From Chiloscyllium plagiosum (taxonomy: Eukaryota), in the NCBI RefSeq assembly GCF_004010195.1, contig NC_057719.1, forward strand, positions 5,146,412-5,210,411: a stretch of DNA of 64,000 nt, in the 5' to 3' direction. Positions within the stretch are counted from its first letter, which is position 1; each line of letters opens with the position of its first letter. Positions 5,316-63,104 of this stretch are shown one piece after another. Under the pieces are notes generated by a model. That model was not told where the DNA came from and did not search any database. It saw nothing but the letters and a program-made list of their open reading frames with translations. A program made the translations under genes and the position numbers.

Positions 5316-6614
5316 ATTTAGGAATAAGGAAATAATTTGTGTGCAGGGGTTTTCCAAGGCAGTGATAGATAGCTGTGTGCAAAGAGAAATTGGGGGGGGT
5401 GGCGGATGTTTGGTATCAGAGTCAAGATTAGAATGCTGCTGGAAAAGCACAGCAGGTCAGGCAGCATCTGAGGAGCAGGAATTGTTATGTTGTGGGAAGG
5501 TGATGGGATATTGGAGATGATGATAGGTAGATTGGAGGGGATGGAGTATGGGGGAGATGATGCACAGAAATGGAGATATCTACGGTAAGGAGTTATCCAG
5601 TTAGGACAGAGATGAGGAGGAATTTCTTCGTACAACGTGTAATGAATCTATGGAATCCACCTAATCCGCACATCTATGGACTGTGGGAGGAAACCGGAGT
5701 AAACCCACACAGACACGGGAAGAATGGGCAAACTCTACACAGTCACCTGAGGATGGAATCGTACCCGGGTCCCTGGCACCATGAGGCAGCAGTGCTAACC
5801 ACTGAGCCACCATGCTGCCCCTTAGTGACATACTTTGTTTTATAATGCTCCTGTTAAGCGCTTTTGTTGTGTTAAAGGCAAAGTAAAATTGTTGGATGAG
5901 ACCATCCTGACTTACAATGTCACCGCCATCTCCACGTCTTTGTTATTTTCAGCTGACTGAAATCACTGAAGCTATTGGAACACTATACATTATGTCTTCA
6001 CGGCAGTGTCTTTGTTACCTCCTAAATGATTCTGCAGTAGTCAAAGTGTATTTTACCAACAGCATTTTATTTACACTCTGATGCTGCATACAGTGTTAAA
6101 AGGTATGGCACTGGAAAAGCACAGCAGGTCAGGCAGCATCCGAGGAGCAGGAGAGTCGACATTTTGAGCATAAGCCCTTCATTATTCCTGATGATCTCCA
6201 GCATCTGCAGTCCTCGCTTTCTCCTCATTGATGTTGCATACAGTCATTGAGCTACACTAGTTCAGGGTGTTTCCTCTATTAGGTTTCCCTTACCTCTCTG
6301 TCCTAGTCATGGGATGATACATCACCATTCTACCAGGAACCTGTGGGCTGATTCTATTAAACCATTACCCCACAGGCAACAAGAGCAGGTCTGAGTCTAA
6401 ATCAATATCTCTGAAATCTCAAGCATCGCAGCTCTGTAAGGACTCACCAAAATGTGAACTTATTACCTCTTCTGGGCAACTAGGGTGGACAATAACTTGA
6501 CTTTGCCAACATCACCTATCGTTGTAACAATGCTGCTCCTTTAACAAGGTTATATTGTCCTTGGCTTTGTAGAGGGTTGTAAAGGCAAAGGTTCTGATAT
6601 TTCTGGAAATATCT
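5102..6614 (+). repeat. Copy 1 of ~1.5-kb near-identical direct duplication (copy 2 at 22931-24442)
   Basis: Direct comparison; matching ORFs at 5570 and 23399 (offset 17829). Confidence 0.95.
6098..6227. mobile_element. Family A fold-back element, internally deleted (duplicated at ~23926-24053)
   Basis: Minus arm GCACTGGAAAAGCACAGCAGG...GCCCTTCAT joined to CCTGATGA and the tail TCTCCAGCATCTGCAGTCCTCGCTTTCTCCT. Confidence 0.7.
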
Positions 6615-8080: not shown

Positions 8081-8092
8081 AATGTACTTCTA

Positions 8093-8306
8093 GTGTTGAA
8101 AAATGTGTTGCTGGAAAAACACAGCAGGCCAGGCAGCATCCGAGGAGCAGGAGAATCGACGTTTCGGGCATAAGCTCTTCTTCAGGAACCTTATGCCCAA
8201 AACGTCGATTCTCCTGCTCCTTGGATGCTGCCTGGCCTGCTGTGTTTTTCCAGCAACACATTTTTCAACTCTGGTCTCCAGCATCTGCAGTCCTCACTTT
8301 CTCCTA
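8093..8306. mobile_element. Family A fold-back element with 14-bp TSD
   Basis: TSD GTAATGTACTTCTA at 8079-8092 and 8307-8320; inverted arms; minus-strand core CTGAAGA...GAAACGTC. Confidence 0.85.
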
Positions 8307-8492: not shown

Positions 8493-8730
8493 CCTGTTGT
8501 TTAATACAGGCTAGCAACTAATTATAGATTACACTGATCAGATGGACTTTGTTACTAAGATGTTGAGGAGACCTAAAACAAGGGTTTTCACTCTTCACTC
8601 TGAATCTGTTTTGCTTTCCTCCCATCCATATTTGTACGACATAATCACGTTATAATTTGGTCACCAAAGTTAATTCTTTCATGACCATTGACATATACCA
8701 TAAGAACATTAGATATATGATCTGAAGTAG

Positions 8731-9014
8731 GGATTAGAGTGTTTCTGGAAAAGCACAGCAGGTCAGACAGCATCCAAGGAGCAGGAAAATCGATGTTTTG
8801 AGTAAAAGTTCTTCATCAGGAATTCCTCCACTATCACCTGATGAAGGAGCGGCGCTCCGAAAGCTAGTGCTTCCAAATAAACCTGTTGGACTATAACCTG
8901 GTGTTGTGTGATTTTTAACTTTGTACACCCCAGTCCAACACCGGCATCTCCAAATCATGACCACTCTAATCTAGGCTCTGATCTTCAGCATCTGCAGTCC
9001 TCACTTTCGCCTAG
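8731..9014. mobile_element. Family A element with 12-bp TSD, carrying a nested family B unit
   Basis: TSD GATCTGAAGTAG at 8719-8730 and 9015-9026; unrelated sequence at ~8825-8963 in the centre. Confidence 0.8.
8835..8869 (+). ncRNA. Minimal type-I hammerhead ribozyme-like motif (family B)
   Basis: Stem I CAC/GTG; core CTGATGA; extra A; stem II GGAGC-GGC-GCTCC; GAAA; palindromic AGCT stem III; predicted cleavage after CTA (8866). Confidence 0.75.
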
Positions 9015-10754
9015 GATCTGAAGTAGCCCATTCAGCCCATGCAGTCTGTTCCGCCATTCAGTGAGATCATGGCTGCCCTGATAACCCTCAACTCCACAAC
9101 CCTGCCTTTGCCCTTGATTCCCATATGGATTAAAAATCTATCTTGAAATTACTCAACAGACTCGCCTCTACAGCCCACTGCGGTAAAGAATTCCACAGGT
9201 TCGCAACACACTGAGACAAGAAATTATACAACAATGGTTAAACATCAGCTATCTCCTACCACACAGCCACATTCCTATCAGTCATAGAGTCATGGAGTCA
9301 GTGGTATGTTATTGATTCCATGAATTCCAACTTTAGCTGAGAATCTGGTATGAGGGACGAAGAAACTCTGCCCTTTACGTGATATTGCAGGCACCAGGGG
9401 ACAAAAGTGGGAAATGAGAGGAAGTAATTTGAATGCAGCAAGTTGCAATGGTAGCTGAGATGACCAATAATTTGGAAATGGTTTGGATTGGACCCTTGAA
9501 AAAACTCAACTTGCAGGGCTATGGAGAGGAATGGGGAAGGGAGTGTGACTCCCCTGAGAAAACATGACGGGGTGAATGTGACACTATGGCTTTATCAAAT
9601 GCCTTCTGGAAATACATATAACATCCAGGGACATTGCTCTGTCCAGTTACTCAACTCTTCAGAAATTTCATTCAGCTTTATCAGGCATGACATAATATTT
9701 ACAACTTCATGCTAGCTCTGTCTGAGCAGCTGAAAAATTTTCAAGGCGCAATATTTTCAAAATGCAACCGAAAAATGTTCACTCTGTTGTTCCATTATAA
9801 TGTTTTGAAACCAGGTGTTAGACTAACTGGTCCATGTTGTCCTGGCCTCCCCCTCTCTCTCTTTCCCACCTTTCCTAGCTAGTAAAGTGACAAATGTAAT
9901 TTTCTAGTGTTCAGGTACAAGTTTTCAAATTTAGCAGTACAGTTTTCTAATCTAAAGGTACAGTGTCCTAATCCAATAGTTTTAGAACTGAAAATGTTTG
10001 GCAAGTTAAAAAATTTAATTTAAGATTAAACATTTATAATCTTTAAAATGGACACTTTCTGGGGCTGGCAAATTTAACCAATCATTAGTGCCTTTGTTTT
10101 CTTCATTAATATTAGTTTGATTATATTAATGTTGGTGAGTCACCGTCCCTAATACAATATGGGTTTCACGGAATTTTACAGTGCAGAATGAGGCCATTCG
10201 GCCCATCATGTCTGTTTCTTTGAGAATTCTGGAATGTTGATCTCTCCCTTCAGTGTAAATACTGAGCAATTACTCCATATGTCCACCATTTCCTTACTGT
10301 GATTGACAATGTCACCATTATAAGTTTCCTGAGGGTGTCCTAGACCTCCCACTCTCCTCATTGTCAGAATTGTTTCTGTTCCCAAACTTCCAAGATTGTT
10401 GCACACTCCATTTTGGAAGCTGACAATGTATGTTTTTCATCCTTTGCCTTTCTCTGTGTTTTTCCTCTCAGCAGGATCTGCACTTCGCTTTTTGTCTGCA
10501 TTTTTGTGGGCTTATTCTTTTAGTTTGATGTTGCCCCTTACCTCCACTGATCCATGATTGTTTTTTAATCAAGAAAATTGCTTTTCCTGCAGGGGTATTA
10601 AAAGGCATTGCATCACATTAAATGTAGTTTTTTGAACAGCCCCCCCTCCCCCTCCCCCCCACCAAACCATCATTTCAGAAGTTTACCCATTGAGGGATTT
10701 ACTGTCATTGTGGATAATCTTTGTCTCTTCCCACAAAGGTCAACCTTATCTAGG

Positions 10755-13039: not shown

Positions 13040-14640
13040 TTACAAGGTTCAATGCAATCTTCAGCCAGAACTGGTAAGTGAATGATCCATCTCGGCCTCC
13101 TTTAGTTGTGCCCCCCATCACAGAACCCAGTTTGATTCATTCCACCTGATATCAGGAAAAGGTTGATATTCTAGAATAGTACTGAAGACGTGTGCTCCAG
13201 AACTTGCCGCCCCCCCCTAGCCAAGCTCTTTCAGTACAGTTACAACACTGGCATCTACCCGACAATGTGGAAAATTGCCCGGGTGTGTCCTGTACACAAA
13301 AAGCAGGAGAAATTCAACCTGGCCAATTCCTGCCCAATCGGACCACTCTCCATCATCAGGAAAGTGATGGGAGGGGTCAGCAATAGTGCTATCAGGCAGC
13401 ACCTGCTCAGCAATAGCAATAGTGCTATCAGGCAGCACCTGCTCAGCAATAACCTGCTCAGTGACGCCCAGTTTGGGTTCAGCCAGGGTCACTCAGCTCC
13501 TGACCTCATCACAGCCTTGGGTCAAACATGGACAAAAGAGCTGAATTCCAGAGGGGAAGGGAGAGTGACAGCCCTTGACATCAAGACCATATTTGACCGA
13601 GCGGGTCATCAAGGAGCCCCAGCAAAACTGGAATCAATGGGAATCTGGGGGATAATTAAATCATGCCGGGCACATAGGAAGATAGTTTTTAGAGGTCAGG
13701 CACCTCATCTCTCCAGGAGTTCCTCAGGCTAGTGCTCTAGGCCCAAGCATCTCCAGCTGCTTCATCAATGACCATTATAAGGTCAGAAGTGCGGATGTTC
13801 ACTGATGATTATACCATTCACAACTCCTTAAATACTGAAGCAGTCGGTAGCCAAATGCAACAAGATCTGGGTTTGGACTAACAAGTGGCAAGTAACATTT
13901 ATGCCACACTAATGTCAGGGATTTCCAGCAAAATACAATCTAACCACTGCCCCATGAGAGTTAATCGCATTTCCATTCTGAAAAAGCCCCCTAACACATT
14001 CAACATTCTGGACGTTATTGTTAACCAGAAACTGAAGGGGACTCACCAATAACTACAGTGGCTGCAAAAGCAGGTCAGAAGCTGTAGCAAATAACTCACC
14101 TCCTGACACATCCCGCAGACCACTTGCCATCTACGAGTCACAAGTCAGGAGTGTGATGGAATACGCACCTCTTGCCTGGACGGTTGCACCTCCAACAACA
14201 CTCAAAAACCTTGACACCATCCAGGACAAAGCAGCCCGTTTGATTGACAAGCATCCATTCCATCCATCAGATGCTAGTGTGTACCATCTACAAGATGCAC
14301 TGCAGAAATTCACCAAAGGTCCTCAGACAGCACCTTCCAAACCCACAACCACTTCTATCTAGAAGGACAAGACTGGCAGATACATGGGATCACTACCATT
14401 TGACAGTTCCCTCCAAACCAGTCACCATTCTGATTTTGAAATATATTGCTGTTCCTTTGCTGTTGCTGAGTCAAACTCCTGGAATTCCCTCCCTAACAGC
14501 ATTGTGGGTCTATGTACAGGACATGGACTGCAGTAGTTCAAGAAGACAGCTCACCACTACCTTCTCAAGGGGCACGTAGGGATGGGCAATAAATGCTGGC
14601 CCAGCCAATGACACCCACATCCCATAAATGAATAAAAAAA
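13040..14640 (+). mobile_element. Decayed non-LTR retrotransposon (CR1/L2-group RT, distinct from the HER1-like CR1s)
   Basis: ORF 13190-13732 with PLAKLFQ...WKIARVCPVHKK...QFGF...ALDIKTIFDR; MEYAPLAW; tail ATGAATAAAAAAA. Confidence 0.85.
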
Positions 14641-18869: not shown

Positions 18870-19900
18870 AATGTTAGAATCGATCAGAAATGAAGCAATA
18901 AATGGTCTCTTGGAGCAACTGATTGGATTTGGCCTAGTCAGCATGGATTAGTGAGTGGAAAATTATGTTTGATGAACTGGTTGAAGAATTTTGAAGGGAG
19001 TTAACAGATGAGTTGACACATATGACTTTCAGAGCTGAAAATGTGTTGCTGGAAAAGCGCAGCAGGTCGGGCAGCATCCAAGGAGCAGAAGAATCGACGT
19101 TTTGGGCATGAGCCCTTCTTCAGGAATGAGCCCATTCCTGAAGAAGGGCTCATGCCCGAAACGTCATTCCTGAAGAAGGGCTCATGCCCGAAACGTCGAT
19201 TCTCCTGCTCCTTGGATGCTGCCTGACCTGCTGCGCTTTTCCAGCAACACATTTTCAGCTCTGATCTCCAGCATCTGCAGTCCTCACTTTCCCCACATAT
19301 GACTTTCAACAAAGTTCCTCCCAAGAGATTGGTTAGAAACATTAAAGCACACAGAATAGGAGGCAAAGTGCTGGCATGGATTAAGCATTGACTATCAGAC
19401 AGAAAACAGAGAATAACGAATACATGAGTCATTCTCACATTGACAGACTGTGACTAGTGGGGTACCACAAGGATCAGTACCCCAGCCCCAGCTGATCAAA
19501 ATATAGATCAATGATTTGGATCTGGGGAATGAACATTTCAATGTTTGTGGATGATACAAAACTGAGCAGGAACGTGTGTTGTGATGAAGAAGTAAAATGT
19601 TTTCAAAAAGATTTTGACAGGCTCAGTGAATAGGAAAGAAGATGGCAGATGGAATACAATGTGGAAAATGTGAGATTATTCATGATGGTAGGAAGACCAA
19701 TTGTGCAGGATATTTCTTAAATAGTAAGAAGTTAGATAGTGTAGATGTCACAAAGGTGTCCTTGTCAATAGGTCATTGAAGGCTAACATGCAGGTGCAGT
19801 GAGCTGGAAGGCTAATGGAATGTTAGCCTTTATCGCAAGAAGATTTCAGTACAGCAGCAGTGAAGGCTTGCTTCATTTGTATAAGAGCCTGATTAGACTG
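18870..19900 (+). mobile_element. Decayed CR1 RT fragment, interrupted by a family A element
   Basis: Remnants of TSGVPQGSV, DDTKL and WQMEYNVE. Confidence 0.7.
19032..19293. mobile_element. Family A fold-back element with tandem hammerhead-like cores and 15-bp TSD
   Basis: TSD CACATATGACTTTCA at 19017-19031 and 19294-19308; 32-bp tandem repeat 19134-19165/19166-19197. Confidence 0.9.
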
Positions 19901-22932: not shown

Positions 22933-24442
22933 CATGGATTTGTTCCAGGTGCTCTGAGTTTCCTCCCAAAGTCCGAAGATGTGCAAGGTAGGTGGACTGG
23001 CCATGGTAAATTGCCCATAGTGTCTAGGGATGTGCTAGCTAGGTGGGTTAGCCACGGGGAGTGCAGGGTAACAGGGACGGGGTGGGATCTTTAGAGGTCA
23101 GTGTTGACTGAATGGGCAGCTTCCATACTGTAGGAGATTCTATGATTTAGGAATAAGGAAATAATTTGTGTGCAGTGTTTTCCAAGGCAGTGATAGATAG
23201 CTGTGTGCAAAGAGAAATTGGGAGGGGTGGGGGGATGTTTGGTATCAGAGTCAAGATTAGAGTGCTGCTGGAAAAGCACAGCAGGTCAGGCAGCATCTGA
23301 GGAGCAGGAATTGTTATGTTGTGGGAAGGAGATGGGATATTGGAGTTGATGATAGGTAGATTGGAGGGGATGGAGTATGGGGGAGATGATGCACAGAAAT
23401 GGAGATATCTACGGTAAGGAGTTATCCAGTTAGGACAGAGATGAGGAGGAATTTCTTCGTACAACGTGTAATGAATCTATGGAATCCACCTAATCCGCAC
23501 ATCTATGGACTGTGGGAGGAAACCAGAGTAAACCCACACAGACACGGGAAGAATGGGCAAACTCTACACAGTCACCTGAGGATGGAATCGTACCCGGGTC
23601 CCTGGCACCATGAGGCAGCAGTGCTAACCACTGAGCCACCATGCTGCCCCTTAGTGACATACTTTGTTTTATAATGCTCCTGTTAAGCGCTTTTGTTGTG
23701 TTAAAGGCAAAGTAAAATTGTTGGATGAGACCATCCTGACTTACAATGTCACCGCCATCTCCACGTCTTTGTTATTTTCAGCTGACTGAAATCACTGAAG
23801 CTATTGGAACACTATACATTATGTCTTCACGGCAGTGTCTTTGTTACCTCCTAAATGATTCTGCAGTAGTCAAAGTGTATTTTACCAACAGCATTTTATT
23901 TACACTCTGATGCTGCAAAAGTGTTAAAAGGTATGGCACTGGAAAAGCACAGCAGGTCAGGCAGCATCCGAGGAGCAGGAGAGTCGACATTTTGAGCATA
24001 AGCCCTTCATTATTCCTGATGATCTCCAGCATCTGCAGTCCTCGCTTTCTCCTCATTGATGTTGCATACAGTCATTGAGCTACACTAGTTCAGGGTGTTT
24101 CCTCTATTAGGTTTCCCTTACCTCTCTGTCCTAGTCATGGGATGATACATCACCATTCTACCAGGAGCCTGTGGGCTGATTCTATTAAACCATTACCCCA
24201 CAGGCAACGAGAGCAGGTCTGAGTCTAGATCAATATTTCTGAAATCTCAAGCATCGCAGCTCTGTAAGGACTCACCAAAATATGAACTTATTACCTCTTC
24301 TGGGCAACTAGGGTGGACAATAACTTGACTTTGCCAACATCACCTATCGTTGTAACGATGCTGCTCCTTTAACAAGGTTATATTGTCCTTGGCTTTGTAG
24401 AGGGTTGTAAAGGCAAAGGTTTTGATATTTCTAGAATTATCT
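22931..24442 (+). repeat. Copy 2 of the ~1.5-kb duplication
   Basis: Near-identical to 5102-6614; begins mid-SINE. Confidence 0.95.
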
Positions 24443-30720: not shown

Positions 30721-30930
30721 CTGAAAATGTATTGCTGGAAAAGCGCAGCAGGTCAGGCAGCATCCAAGGAGCAGGAGAATCGACGTTTCAGGCATGAGTC
30801 CTTCTTCAGGAAAGGCTCATGCCCGAAATGTCGATTCTCCTGCTCCTTGGATGCTGCCTGACCTGCTGCGCTTTTCCAGCAACACATTTTCAGCCCTGAT
30901 CTCCAGCATCTGCAGTTCTCACTTTCTTCC
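30721..30930. mobile_element. Family A fold-back element with 14-bp TSD (one mismatch)
   Basis: TAAGTACATGAATA 30707-30720 / TAAATACATGAATA 30931-30944. Confidence 0.85.
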
Positions 30931-32502: not shown

Positions 32503-34290
32503 AGTCATAGAATCATACGGCATGGATACAGACTCTTTGGTCCAACTTGTCCATGCTGACCAGATATCCTAAACTGACTTACTCCCATTTGCCAGTACTT
32601 GGCTAAAATCCCTCCAAACCCTTCCTATTTCTAATCCAAACTGCTAAATCACCCTCAATCCCATGCCTCCGCATTTTCTCCAGCAGTCTACCATGTGGAA
32701 CCTTATCAAAGGCTTTACTGAAATCCATATACACCACGTCAACTGCCCTCCCCTCATCCACATGCTTGGTCACCTTCTCAAAAACCTCAATGAGGTTTAT
32801 GAGACATGACCTGCCCTTGACAAAACCATGTTGACTATCTCCAATCAAATTGATGCTTGCTAAATGATTATAAATCTGATCTCTTATAATCCTTTCCAAA
32901 ACTTCTCCTACAACACACGTAAGGCTTACTGGTCTATAATTGCCTGGGTTATCTCTACTGCCCTACTTGAATAAGAACCCAACATTTGCAATCCTCCATT
33001 TCTCTGGTACTAAATCTGTAGTCAATGACGACTTAAAGATCAAGGCCAAAGGCTCCGCCACCTCCTCCCTAACTTCCCAGAGAATCCTCGGATAAATCCC
33101 ATCCAGTCCAGGGGATTTTTCTACTTTCACACGTTCTAGAATTGATAACACCTCTTCCTTACTAACCTTAATCCTTTCTAGTCTAATATCTCGTACCTCA
33201 TTCTTCTCCTCTACAATATTATCCTTTTGCTGAGTGAAAACAGACGAGAAATATTCATTTAGCACCTCTCTGATCTCCACAGGGTCCACACTCAACTTTC
33301 CACTTCTGTCTTTGACTGGACCTATTCCTATCCTAGTTATCCTTTTATTCCTCACATACCTAGAGAAAGCTCTAGGGTTCTCCTTTATTCTACTTGCTAA
33401 AGATTGCTCACGTCTCCTCCTTGCTCTTCTTAACTCTCTCTTTAAATCCTTCCCAGCTAATCTGTAACTCTCCATTGCCTCATCTCAACTATCTCATCTC
33501 AACGTAACATAAGCCTTTGCTTAACAAGAGATGCAATTTCTTTAGTAAACCACGGTTCCCTCACCTTAATGCTTCTTCCCTGCCTGACAGGGACATACCT
33601 ATCAAGGACACACAATAGTTGTTCCTTAAACCAGCTCCACATTTCGATTCGTACCCATCCCCTGCATTTTGCTACCATTCTATGCATCCCCAAGTCTTGC
33701 CTAATCACATTATAATTGCTCTTCCCCCATCTATAACTCTTGCCCTGTGGCATGTAACTATCCTCTCCATCACAAAACTAATCGTAACCGAATTATGGTC
33801 ACTCTTTCCAAAATGCTCACCTACCACTAAATCAAACACCTGGCCTGGTTCATTACCACGTACCAGATCCAGTGTGGCCTGCCCTTGTCAGCCCTTCGAC
33901 ATGCTGTGTCAGGGAGCCCACCTGCACCCATTGGACAAAAACTGATCCATCCAACATATTAGAGTGAAAGCATTTCCAGTCAATGTTGGGGAAGTTAAGG
34001 TCCCCCATAATGACCGGGGAGAAAGTGAGGTCTGCAGATGCTGGAGATCAGAGATGGAAAGGTGTTGCTGTAAAAGCGCAGCAGGTCAGGCAGCATCTAG
34101 GGAACAGGAGAATCGACGTTTCAGGCATTAGCTCTAGGGTTCACCTGAAGAAGGGCTAATGCCCGAAACGTCGATTCTCCTGTTCCCTAGATGCTGCCTG
34201 ACCTGCTGCGCTTTTCCAGCAACACATTTCCACCCCCATAATGACCACCCTGGTCCTTTCACTCCTACCCAGAATTGTTTTGCCAATCCT
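32503..34290 (-). mobile_element. CR1 LINE (EN-linker-RT), internally deleted and joined to its 3' end
   Basis: ORFs 33499-33753, 32963-33475 (KSPGLDGIYPRIL) and 32603-32899 (QHGFVKGRSCL, YMDFSKAFDKVPH). Confidence 0.9.
34016..34232. mobile_element. Family A fold-back element with 14-bp TSD
   Basis: TSD CCCCCATAATGACC at 34002-34015 and 34233-34246; intact + core CTGAAGA-A-GGGC-TAAT-GCCC-GAAACGTC. Confidence 0.9.
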
Positions 34291-37120: not shown

Positions 37121-37347
37121 GGTCAAGAGTGTGGAGTTGGAAAAGCATAGCAGTCAGGCAGCATCCGAGGAGCAGGAAAATCGACGTTTCAGGCAGAAGC
37201 CCTTCATCAAAAAGCCCTTCCTGATGAAGGGCTTTCATCCGAAACGTAAATTTTTCTGGACCTCGGATGCTGCCTGACCTGCTGTGCTTTTCCAGCACCA
37301 CACTCTTGACTCTAATCTCCAGCATCTGCAGTCCTCACTTTCGCCTT
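37121..37347. mobile_element. Family A fold-back element with 15-bp TSD; a further arm fragment at ~37366-37448
   Basis: TSD ACACGTAGAATTTGG at 37106-37120 and 37348-37362. Confidence 0.85.
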
Positions 37348-51366: not shown

Positions 51367-51590
51367 AAAGGAGAAAGTGAGGACTGCAGATGCTGGAGAT
51401 CAGAGCTGAAAATGTGTTGCTGGAAAAGCGCAGCAGGTCAGGCAGCATCCAGGGAACAGGAGAATCGACGTTTCGGGCATAAGCCCTTCTTCAGGATTCC
51501 TGAAGAAGGGCTTATGCCCGAAACGTCGATTCTCCTGTTCCCTGGATGCTGCCTGACCTGCTGCGCTTTTCCAGCAACACATTTTCAGCT
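51367..51590. mobile_element. Youngest family A element: perfect 93-bp inverted repeat plus one-sided tail, ~15-bp TSD
   Basis: Arms 51404-51496 and 51498-51590 are exact reverse complements; TSD CTTAAAGTTGACAAG at 51352-51366 and 51589-51603. Confidence 0.95.
51494..51533 (+). ncRNA. Minimal hammerhead ribozyme-like motif (family A type copy; mirror copy on - strand)
   Basis: CTGAAGA 51500-51506, A, GGGC-TTAT-GCCC, GAAA 51520-51523, ACGT palindrome, GTC triplet ending at 51527; short imperfect stem I. Confidence 0.7.
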
Positions 51591-58283: not shown

Positions 58284-58475
58284 TGAGGAGAAAGTGAGGT
58301 CTGCAGATGCTGGAGATCAGAGCTGAAAATGTGTTGCTGGAAAAGCGCAGCAGGTCAGGCAGCATCCAGGGAACAGGAGAATTCCTGAAGAAGGGCTTAT
58401 GCCCGAAACGTCGATTCTCCTGTTCCCTGGATGCTGCCTGACCTGCTGCACTTTTCCAGCAACACATTTTCAGCC
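58284..58475. mobile_element. Family A fold-back element with a single unpaired core, 14-bp TSD
   Basis: TSD AAGGTGCAAAACTT at 58270-58283 and 58476-58489; core 58385-58412. Confidence 0.9.
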
Positions 58476-61940: not shown

Positions 61941-62075
61941 CTAGAAAATCTGCAATGGAAAAGAATTTGAAGAAATAATATCAGGACAAGTTTGATCCAA
62001 CAAGCAAGGCCATAGCTGGGAATCCAATGCACAAATAAGTTTATTTTGAAAGAAAATTTTGAGTTGTGTTGAACG

Positions 62076-63104
62076 ATGAGCAACTGTACTGTCGACCACA
62101 GTATCCACCAGATCCTGTTTCCCGCCGTCTACATTGGGGTCTTCATCATTGGCCTCCCGATTAACCTGCTGTCCCTGTATCACAGCTACCTACAGATCAG
62201 GCAGAAGAATGAGCTGGGAATCTATCTCTGTAATCTGACCATCTCAGACCTGTTGTACCTCCTTTCCTTACCTTTGTGGATTCAGTACATGCTGCAGCAC
62301 GATGACTGGCAATATTCTCGGGAACTTTGCATCTTCAGCGGTCTGCTCCTCTACCAGAATATTTACATCAGTATTGGCTTCCTCTGCTTCATTGCCATTA
62401 ATCGCTTCCTTGTTGTGGCTTACCCTCTGAAATTTAAATTCATACACAGCAGGAAGGCAGCTTTGCTCATCAGTATTCTCATCTGGCTCAAGGAGATAGC
62501 TGTCTGCACCATTTACATGGGCTCCAAGGTTCTCAGTAAAGACGAGGGGAATGATACCCTGTGTTTTGAACATTATCCTCTGCGCCTAAAGGACAGATAT
62601 TTAAATATTTACAAACTCTCCATTGGCTTCAGCCTCCCTTTGATATTATTGATCTACTCTTACTATAAGGTGTTGAGAGTTGTGCACAAAAGCCATGGAC
62701 TTGAAAGACAGCGGAAATTAAGAATAAAAAAATTGGTATCTGGGACAATCATCATTTTCCTGGCTTGCTTTGCCCCTTATCACATTTTCCTGATGGTTCG
62801 AAGCATATTTGAGTATGACTGTCCCTTTGCTGACAGTATTTTTGAGGTTTACCATTTTGGGCTCCTGCTGATGAGCTTAAACTGTGTGGCCGACCCTGTT
62901 TTGTACTGTTTCATATCACAGAGTTCCCAGAGCTGGTTAGCCAGGTTCCTGGATCCTGTTATCAATCTGCTTCCTTGTGGGAAAAAAGAAGAAATTGTGG
63001 CCCTTGAGATGAAGGGCAGCTCACCGCTTACAACTAAAACAAGTCTGTTACCTCAAAGACACCAGAAACAAGAAAAATATGAATACCAACACTCAAAGGT
63101 GTGA
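62076..63104 (+). CDS. GPR68: Proton-sensing class A GPCR, GPR68/OGR1-like (342 aa; ortholog versus paralog unresolved)
   Basis: Intact ORF with 7 hydrophobic segments; GPR68-like motifs CTVDHSIHQ, NELGIYLCNLT, LQHDDW, CFEHYP, CFAPYH and NCVADPVLYCF. Confidence 0.9.
   Translation: MSNCTVDHSIHQILFPAVYIGVFIIGLPINLLSLYHSYLQIRQKNELGIYLCNLTISDLLYLLSLPLWIQYMLQHDDWQYSRELCIFSGLLLYQNIYISIGFLCFIAINRFLVVAYPLKFKFIHSRKAALLISILIWLKEIAVCTIYMGSKVLSKDEGNDTLCFEHYPLRLKDRYLNIYKLSIGFSLPLILLIYSYYKVLRVVHKSHGLERQRKLRIKKLVSGTIIIFLACFAPYHIFLMVRSIFEYDCPFADSIFEVYHFGLLLMSLNCVADPVLYCFISQSSQSWLARFLDPVINLLPCGKKEEIVALEMKGSSPLTTKTSLLPQRHQKQEKYEYQHSKV

Follow-up and report, generated by a model that had tools for sequence, protein, structure and literature searches.

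The 64-kb window that we analysed (the whole stretch of DNA, all 64,000 nucleotides of it) holds one insertion built from two Penelope-like families: a family A hairpin lacks 74-78 bp of its plus arm, and the 3' end module of family B occupies their place. The composite is a rearranged example of a known Penelope insertion architecture, and a real but single, fairly ordinary scar of this type of retroelement. As to its origin, we tentatively favour the reading that a second, later retrotransposition event deleted that arm, and place it slightly short of an even chance; all readings in which B came later, taken together, stand a little above an even chance. One composite locus alters little, and the process cannot be established from it alone. 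It can serve as a small natural experiment on the late steps of Penelope integration, namely the formation of the inverted arm and the sealing of the two ends; the RNA of one family would here have been copied from its natural start into the unit of another.

From left to right the composite consists of a target-site duplication (TSD), an inverted family A arm, the family B unit, an A tail and the second TSD copy. The single 12-bp TSD proposed in the original prediction was recovered: the left copy (8719-8730, plus strand) agrees exactly with the right copy (9015-9026, plus strand) at 12/12 positions, or at 14/15 when stretched to 8716, that is, 15 bp with one mismatch. The inverted arm (8732-8823, minus strand) is tail-less and stops at the usual 5' edge just before the hammerhead. 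The B unit (8826-8961, plus strand) measures 136 bp and is followed by the remnant of the A plus arm, comprising its distal part and the tail (8960-9012, plus strand). Both A parts belong to the CACTCTAATC subfamily. They overlap each other by 10 nt (8962-8971 versus 8732-8741), and the A tail overlaps the B unit by 2 nt (8960-8961). It had been proposed that B replaced the expected plus-arm core; compared to other A copies the 74-78 bp are indeed absent here, but an A tail survives to the right of B, beyond the stretch which that proposal covered. At the centre of the composite lies a perfect 10-bp palindrome (8818-8827). It is likely, if weakly so, to be the original tip of the A hairpin, in which the end of the A arm would be joined by 6 nt of plus-arm head, since 8824-8825 are the only positions in it that neither the A arm nor B explains. 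Family A gives 36 blastn matches and takes up 5% of the window, where family B occurs in a single copy. Directly to the right of the TSD, a lower-abundance repeat occupies 9046-9227 (summed contig depth 500-36000).

The textbook minimal hammerhead claimed for family B is present at 8835-8869 on the plus strand, as a strict descriptor match of type I with a predicted cut after 8866. It is made up of CAC (8835-37), CTGATGA (8838-44), an additional A (8845), stem II GGAGC/GCTCC (8846-50/8854-58; 5 bp, with the 3-nt loop GGC), GAAA (8859-62), GC (8863-64), T (8865), A in position 17 (8866) and GTG (8867-69). Stems I and II are both perfect, as had been stated, stem I having just 3 bp. All elements of the min-HHR core (C3-U-G-A-N-G-A9, G12-A-A-A15.1 and U16.1-H17) are found; in helix II, A8845 lies between positions 9 and 10.1, G8846-C8858 corresponds to G10.1-C11.1, and there are 5 bp, the minimum for the class being 4. 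The stem III palindrome AGCT (8862-65, positions 15.2/16.2) comes without a monomeric helix III and differs, as predicted, from that of family A, with whose ACGU it does not pair. Besides the B site, the strict minimal-hammerhead descriptor matched 6 copies of family A in the 64-kb window; it matched nothing on either strand of 200 simulated windows of this length. The B motif resembles the min-HHRs of Penelope-like elements (PMC4209133) in its type I topology, conserved core, additional base at 9/10.1, G10.1-C11.1 pair, palindromic 15.2/16.2 and short helix I. It belongs to this known class and is a standard Penelope minimal hammerhead.

No Rfam hammerhead family was detected at the B motif, either at the gathering threshold or with E up to 10. 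Its fold is not unusually stable (z-score -0.97), and a 55-nt context adopts a different fold. Cervera and De la Pena (2014) described the min-HHRs of metazoan Penelope-like elements, including many solo motifs from truncated elements, and saw no cleavage by a single min-HHR (PMC4209133). Members of the class are expected to cleave themselves as dimers or when a protein assists. We predict that the B hammerhead is a passenger, inactive as a single copy. The AATAAA noted downstream of it does exist as a hexamer (8876-8881, plus strand), and the chance of one starting within a given 30 nt is about 2%; its function as a signal is unsupported, with about 30% of the aligned family depth showing T at 8877 (ATTAAA). 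AATAAA and ATTAAA are both forms of the poly(A) signal.

The minus-strand A core (8813-8819) lies 15 nt ahead of 8835, in agreement with the spacing originally given for the start of the second family. Dual min-HHR motifs on opposite strands, 100-700 bp apart, are already known (PMC4209133). Unlike the pairs in the available part of that report, the opposed motifs here come from different families, are 15 nt apart and have incompatible stem III palindromes. The A motif at the composite is degenerate, with changes in its stem III palindrome as well as in stem II and GAAA. Six rare changes fall within 17 nt of the A arm (8794-8810), towards its hammerhead end; five are C-to-T changes when read on the top strand, which has the sense of the cDNA.

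The original prediction had offered a template switch between two ribozyme RNAs as one origin of the composite, and preferential insertion at the palindrome centre, here a candidate with a single B copy, as the other. A single event of the first kind is a live rival to our reading, but we find nothing that connects the join to the ribozymes. Ribozyme-directed junctions are ruled out: the predicted cut sites, 8866/67 in B and ~8792 on the minus strand in A, coincide with neither of the junctions and are both internal, intact and uncut. The mismatch in stem III rules out an A/B heterodimeric ribozyme, the heteroduplex of A (ACGU) with B (AGCU) giving 0.0 kcal/mol versus -3.1 and -4.5 kcal/mol for the A and B homoduplexes, respectively. 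The two cores have an 11-nt word in common, and a switch at this word is also ruled out, as 9 nt separate the A head from the B core. Hammerhead cleavage has been found dispensable for insertion in vitro (PMC11167929).

Family B itself was characterized with three contig runs (one from organism A and two from organism B; X3, X9 and X13), aligned over window positions 8500-9250. From RNA run X22, the fourth run used out of 24 listed, 0 reads aligned there in about 6% of the run, which is too little to bear on expression, cleavage or poly(A) use. B is very abundant in the genome: the summed contig depth of the three runs is about 1e7 over B versus about 10 in the left flank, depth not being the same as copy number. 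Among the best 18 of 1645 records, loose contig ends of B accumulate at 8920-8922 (583 and 636 in X13; 624 in X9) and at 8956-8961 (98, 329 and 187 in X3; 823 in X13; 518 and 834 in X9), the outer ends being present in all three DNA runs. These inner and outer termini delimit a tail of about 36 nt (8922-8958, plus strand). B units also occur inverted and head to head, with opposite-strand joints 8835-8872 and 8837-8881 (few records, in 1-3 contigs each from two runs). The two 3' termini about 36 nt apart, together with B's own head-to-head joints, argue that B is a second Penelope-like family. Joints from B 8921 to B 8957 were seen in at least 5 and at least 7 contigs. Head-to-tail tandem B units, a trait of non-LTR retrozymes, were absent, B being single in the 64-kb window; the composite is not tandem, unlike the tandem non-LTR retrozymes in the accessible part of a recent preprint (bioRxiv 10.64898/2026.07.22.740005). 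Exact-pattern scans for B of viral, metagenome and prokaryote genome collections gave 0 matches. Seventeen metagenome matches to the A motif, 20-26 nt long, were dismissed as chance.

Pfam searches of 40/46 long frames found no GIY-YIG domain and linked no parent ORF to B; RVT_1 and APE-type endonuclease fragments occur elsewhere in the window, and the composite is not covered by any long frame. LINE-type reverse transcriptase or endonuclease fragments lie at 13175, 24769, 32606, 54803 and 57861. A 343-aa open frame at 62073-63104 (plus strand) matches 7tm_1, the rhodopsin-family GPCRs, with E 7e-46.

The insertion unit of EN+ Penelope-like elements comprises an inverted 5'-truncated copy, a one-sided tail of 30-40 bp and a TSD (PMC3846280, PMC8557442, PMC11167929). 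Family A resembles it in having a tail-less inverted arm, a tail at the opposite end and a TSD, and B in having two termini about 36 nt apart. The TSDs in this window are 11-16 bp long, versus 8-10 bp in the rotifer Penelope examples excerpted from that literature, and the composite is, unlike full EN+ Penelope elements, an ORF-less stub of about 290 bp. In the open-licence literature, covered through titles, abstract starts and passages, we found no description of a two-family Penelope hairpin.

According to the explanation that we favour, A would have inserted first, in the head-to-head hairpin form usual for Penelope, its tip being perfect. The plus arm would later have been cut by the endonuclease of B, or by another nuclease once the hairpin was extruded; in yeast, nucleases attack hairpins with short loops (PMC8053094). 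The B reverse transcriptase would then have extended the bottom-strand end at 8960/61 from its normal outer start site, with the 2-nt overlap, and copying would have run to about 12 nt upstream of the B hammerhead core, after which the product may have been sealed to the tip of the hairpin, the A sequence in between being lost. The B copy at the composite stops at the outer terminus of its family. This right end suggests that B RNA was reverse-transcribed from a start at a fixed internal position, as happens in Penelope, where the tail has been traced to two internal sites at which reverse transcription starts without homology to the target (PMC11167929). The palindrome at 8818-8827, which would fit a retained hairpin tip, favours a later B to the extent of 2 nt.

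Precedents exist for parts of this route. Non-classical L1 insertions are comparable: TSD-less inserts with target deletion are known (PMC1920257), as are single insertions from two RNAs, in the same and in opposite orientation (PMC11702581). L1 is, however, a different class of retroelement, and B begins at a fixed internal site, which is neither random nor a poly(A) tail. Among Penelope-like elements, the relevant passages of PMC3846280 describe a secondary insertion of Pen2a into Pen3, microhomology deletions, and unrelated DNA captured between pLTRs. Unlike the insertion of Pen2a into Pen3, which has a 9-bp TSD, the second family here stands where the plus arm would be and lacks a convincing TSD.

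Several findings speak against a later B. The outer TSD is still 12/12 identical, no B-less allele is seen in the contig rows listed, and insertion without a TSD is a minority outcome, given that 12/16 tail-bearing A copies in the window have a clear TSD of 11-16 bp. Moreover, the junctions lie where a single event would be expected to place them, one at the natural end of the arm and the other some 10 nt beyond the inner start site. In such an event the A arm would be primed at the inner start site, and the other strand would copy the A tail, halt some 10 nt beyond that site and resume at the outer start site of B; the switch could be a template jump, or a B ribonucleoprotein seizing the free end, and the two cDNAs would be joined head to head. 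We consider this a close rival, clearly short of even but substantial. It would account for the single clean outer TSD without an inner one, for an arm and a tail of the same subfamily that share no more than the 10-nt overlap, for the 2 nt that B and A share where they meet (8961 being another point at which B ends accumulate), and for an A arm that finishes at the 5' edge usual for it. From two start sites, moreover, the Penelope protein is able to cut and extend both strands (PMC11167929), and the two-transcript L1 insertions mentioned above provide a precedent. Against it, nothing obvious unites the two RNAs, as the A and B hammerheads cannot pair via stem III and the shared 11-nt core word is unused at the junction. 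Neither a joint of the A arm to the B head nor one of B to the A tail was found among the best 15 of 378 joints and the best 12 of 239 fillers. Finally, B seems to be less mutated than the A parts, an indirect indication which favours two events.

This difference in apparent age was assessed against an A majority sequence built without the composite's own rows and, in one version, also without three segmental-duplicate rows. Over about 135 nt, the A arm and tail together show 8-9 rare non-CpG changes, and 2-3/5 of their CpGs are changed. The arm alone (8732-8823) has 6 rare non-CpG and 2-3 CpG changes, and the tail alone (8960-9012) has 2-3 rare changes in 51 non-CpG positions. In B, 4 CpGs are kept, no difference listed in the contig table exceeds about 1/3 of depth, and depth is smooth over 8854-8928. 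This table leaves some differences uncounted and does not hold 8767 and 8985, where the A parts depart from nearly all window copies. Zero B changes in about 96 positions would have p=0.003 at the A rate, or p=0.02 at the rate of the tail alone; with 2 changes in B, little of the contrast would be left (Fisher p=0.20, range p=0.07-0.27). Judged indirectly, from these substitution counts, B looks younger than the A parts and near its family majority. Contigs of organism B cover 8500 to 8766 with 5 differences in 267 nt, including the left junction of the composite (records 1 and 17). As they span the left A junction, the A insertion is older than the split of organisms A and B. A joint 8791-8964 from organism B, with depths of 277 and 223 versus about 10, proved to be a multi-copy A form and not an orthologue.

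The loss of the plus-arm core is in itself not special, and also happens without B. The window holds 9 further TSD-flanked A hairpins, duplicates not counted; judged by eye, 3 have a full plus arm, 5 a shortened one, and 1, at 6092-6225, has lost the whole plus-arm core and kept head and tail. Arm-to-tail A joints without B also occur in contigs, among the best 12 of 239 fillers in a table limited by design to short fillers. Such shortened or core-less plus arms, and arm-to-tail joints without B, favour the later arrival of B. Core-less A copies also speak for a course in three steps: the plus-arm core might have been deleted first, as at 6092-6225, and B might then have inserted normally with a TSD of 5-7 bp. 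The candidate for this TSD is a near-repeat (8828-8834 with 8961-8967, plus strand) that matches at 6/7 positions, or over 5 bp exactly, and is in register at the two ends of B; records 11 and 18, moreover, have B alignments that end at 8835. We regard this course of events as improbable. B would have had to land exactly at the earlier deletion junction, the clear TSDs of the window are 11-16 bp long, and two other B records reach 8826/8827, so that most of the left copy can be B sequence. The near-repeat, which is the best found around B, is equalled by 10-11% of random controls. The original prediction had named a TSD of B's own, along with random placement of B, as evidence that would count against it, and no convincing TSD was found.

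A repair at the DNA level would also be consistent with the lack of a TSD and with junctions that both show short overlaps. The hairpin would here have been broken and then mended by copying a pre-existing genomic B, through templated insertion or gene conversion, without local reverse transcription. We hold this to be very unlikely, as the 64-kb window contains no donor B copy, and the insert ends at the natural outer terminus of B without any donor flank.

It is tempting to speculate that Penelope families finish each other's insertions, with an open A intermediate or end serving as the preferred primer for the B ribonucleoprotein. We consider this unlikely; if it were true, A/B junctions at natural termini would recur genome-wide, and counting them would document how templates are exchanged between families and how the hairpin unit is built. 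Tail-to-tail joints of B 8918-8922 to A 9012/9013 do occur in contigs (at least 13, at least 21 and at least 14 in X13; at least 12, at least 17 and at least 11 in X9; 1 in X3), at roughly single-copy depth per contig (at least 48 contigs in X13 and at least 40 in X9). If that reading were true, these B-inner/A-outer joints would be a second class of cross-family completion. They could equally be A insertions into the T-rich stretch of B, or a chance adjacency of two very abundant families, and could also reflect end-targeted insertion.

The family A hairpins of the window show some further features. At 8092-8305, 19038-19294, 30724-30926 and 34018-34229, and likewise at 37122-37346, 51369-51585 and 58286-58470, both arms of each hairpin have subfamily or private variants in common when compared by eye. 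Such matching suggests that one template is usual for both arms of an A hairpin, not random pairs of RNAs. In the 6092 copy the plus-arm core is gone between short TGA overlaps. The A elements at 6092-6225 and 23920-24053, and those at 5415-5481 and 23244-23310, are repeated with their flanks about 17.8 kb apart, in a local segmental duplication. The hairpin at 19100-19200 has its plus-arm hammerhead head tandemly duplicated, giving three cores within 100 bp. Finally, the A copy at 1-343 continues beyond the hammerhead on its upstream side, with a low-complexity stretch rich in C and T, which is probably more of the 3' end of the parent element.
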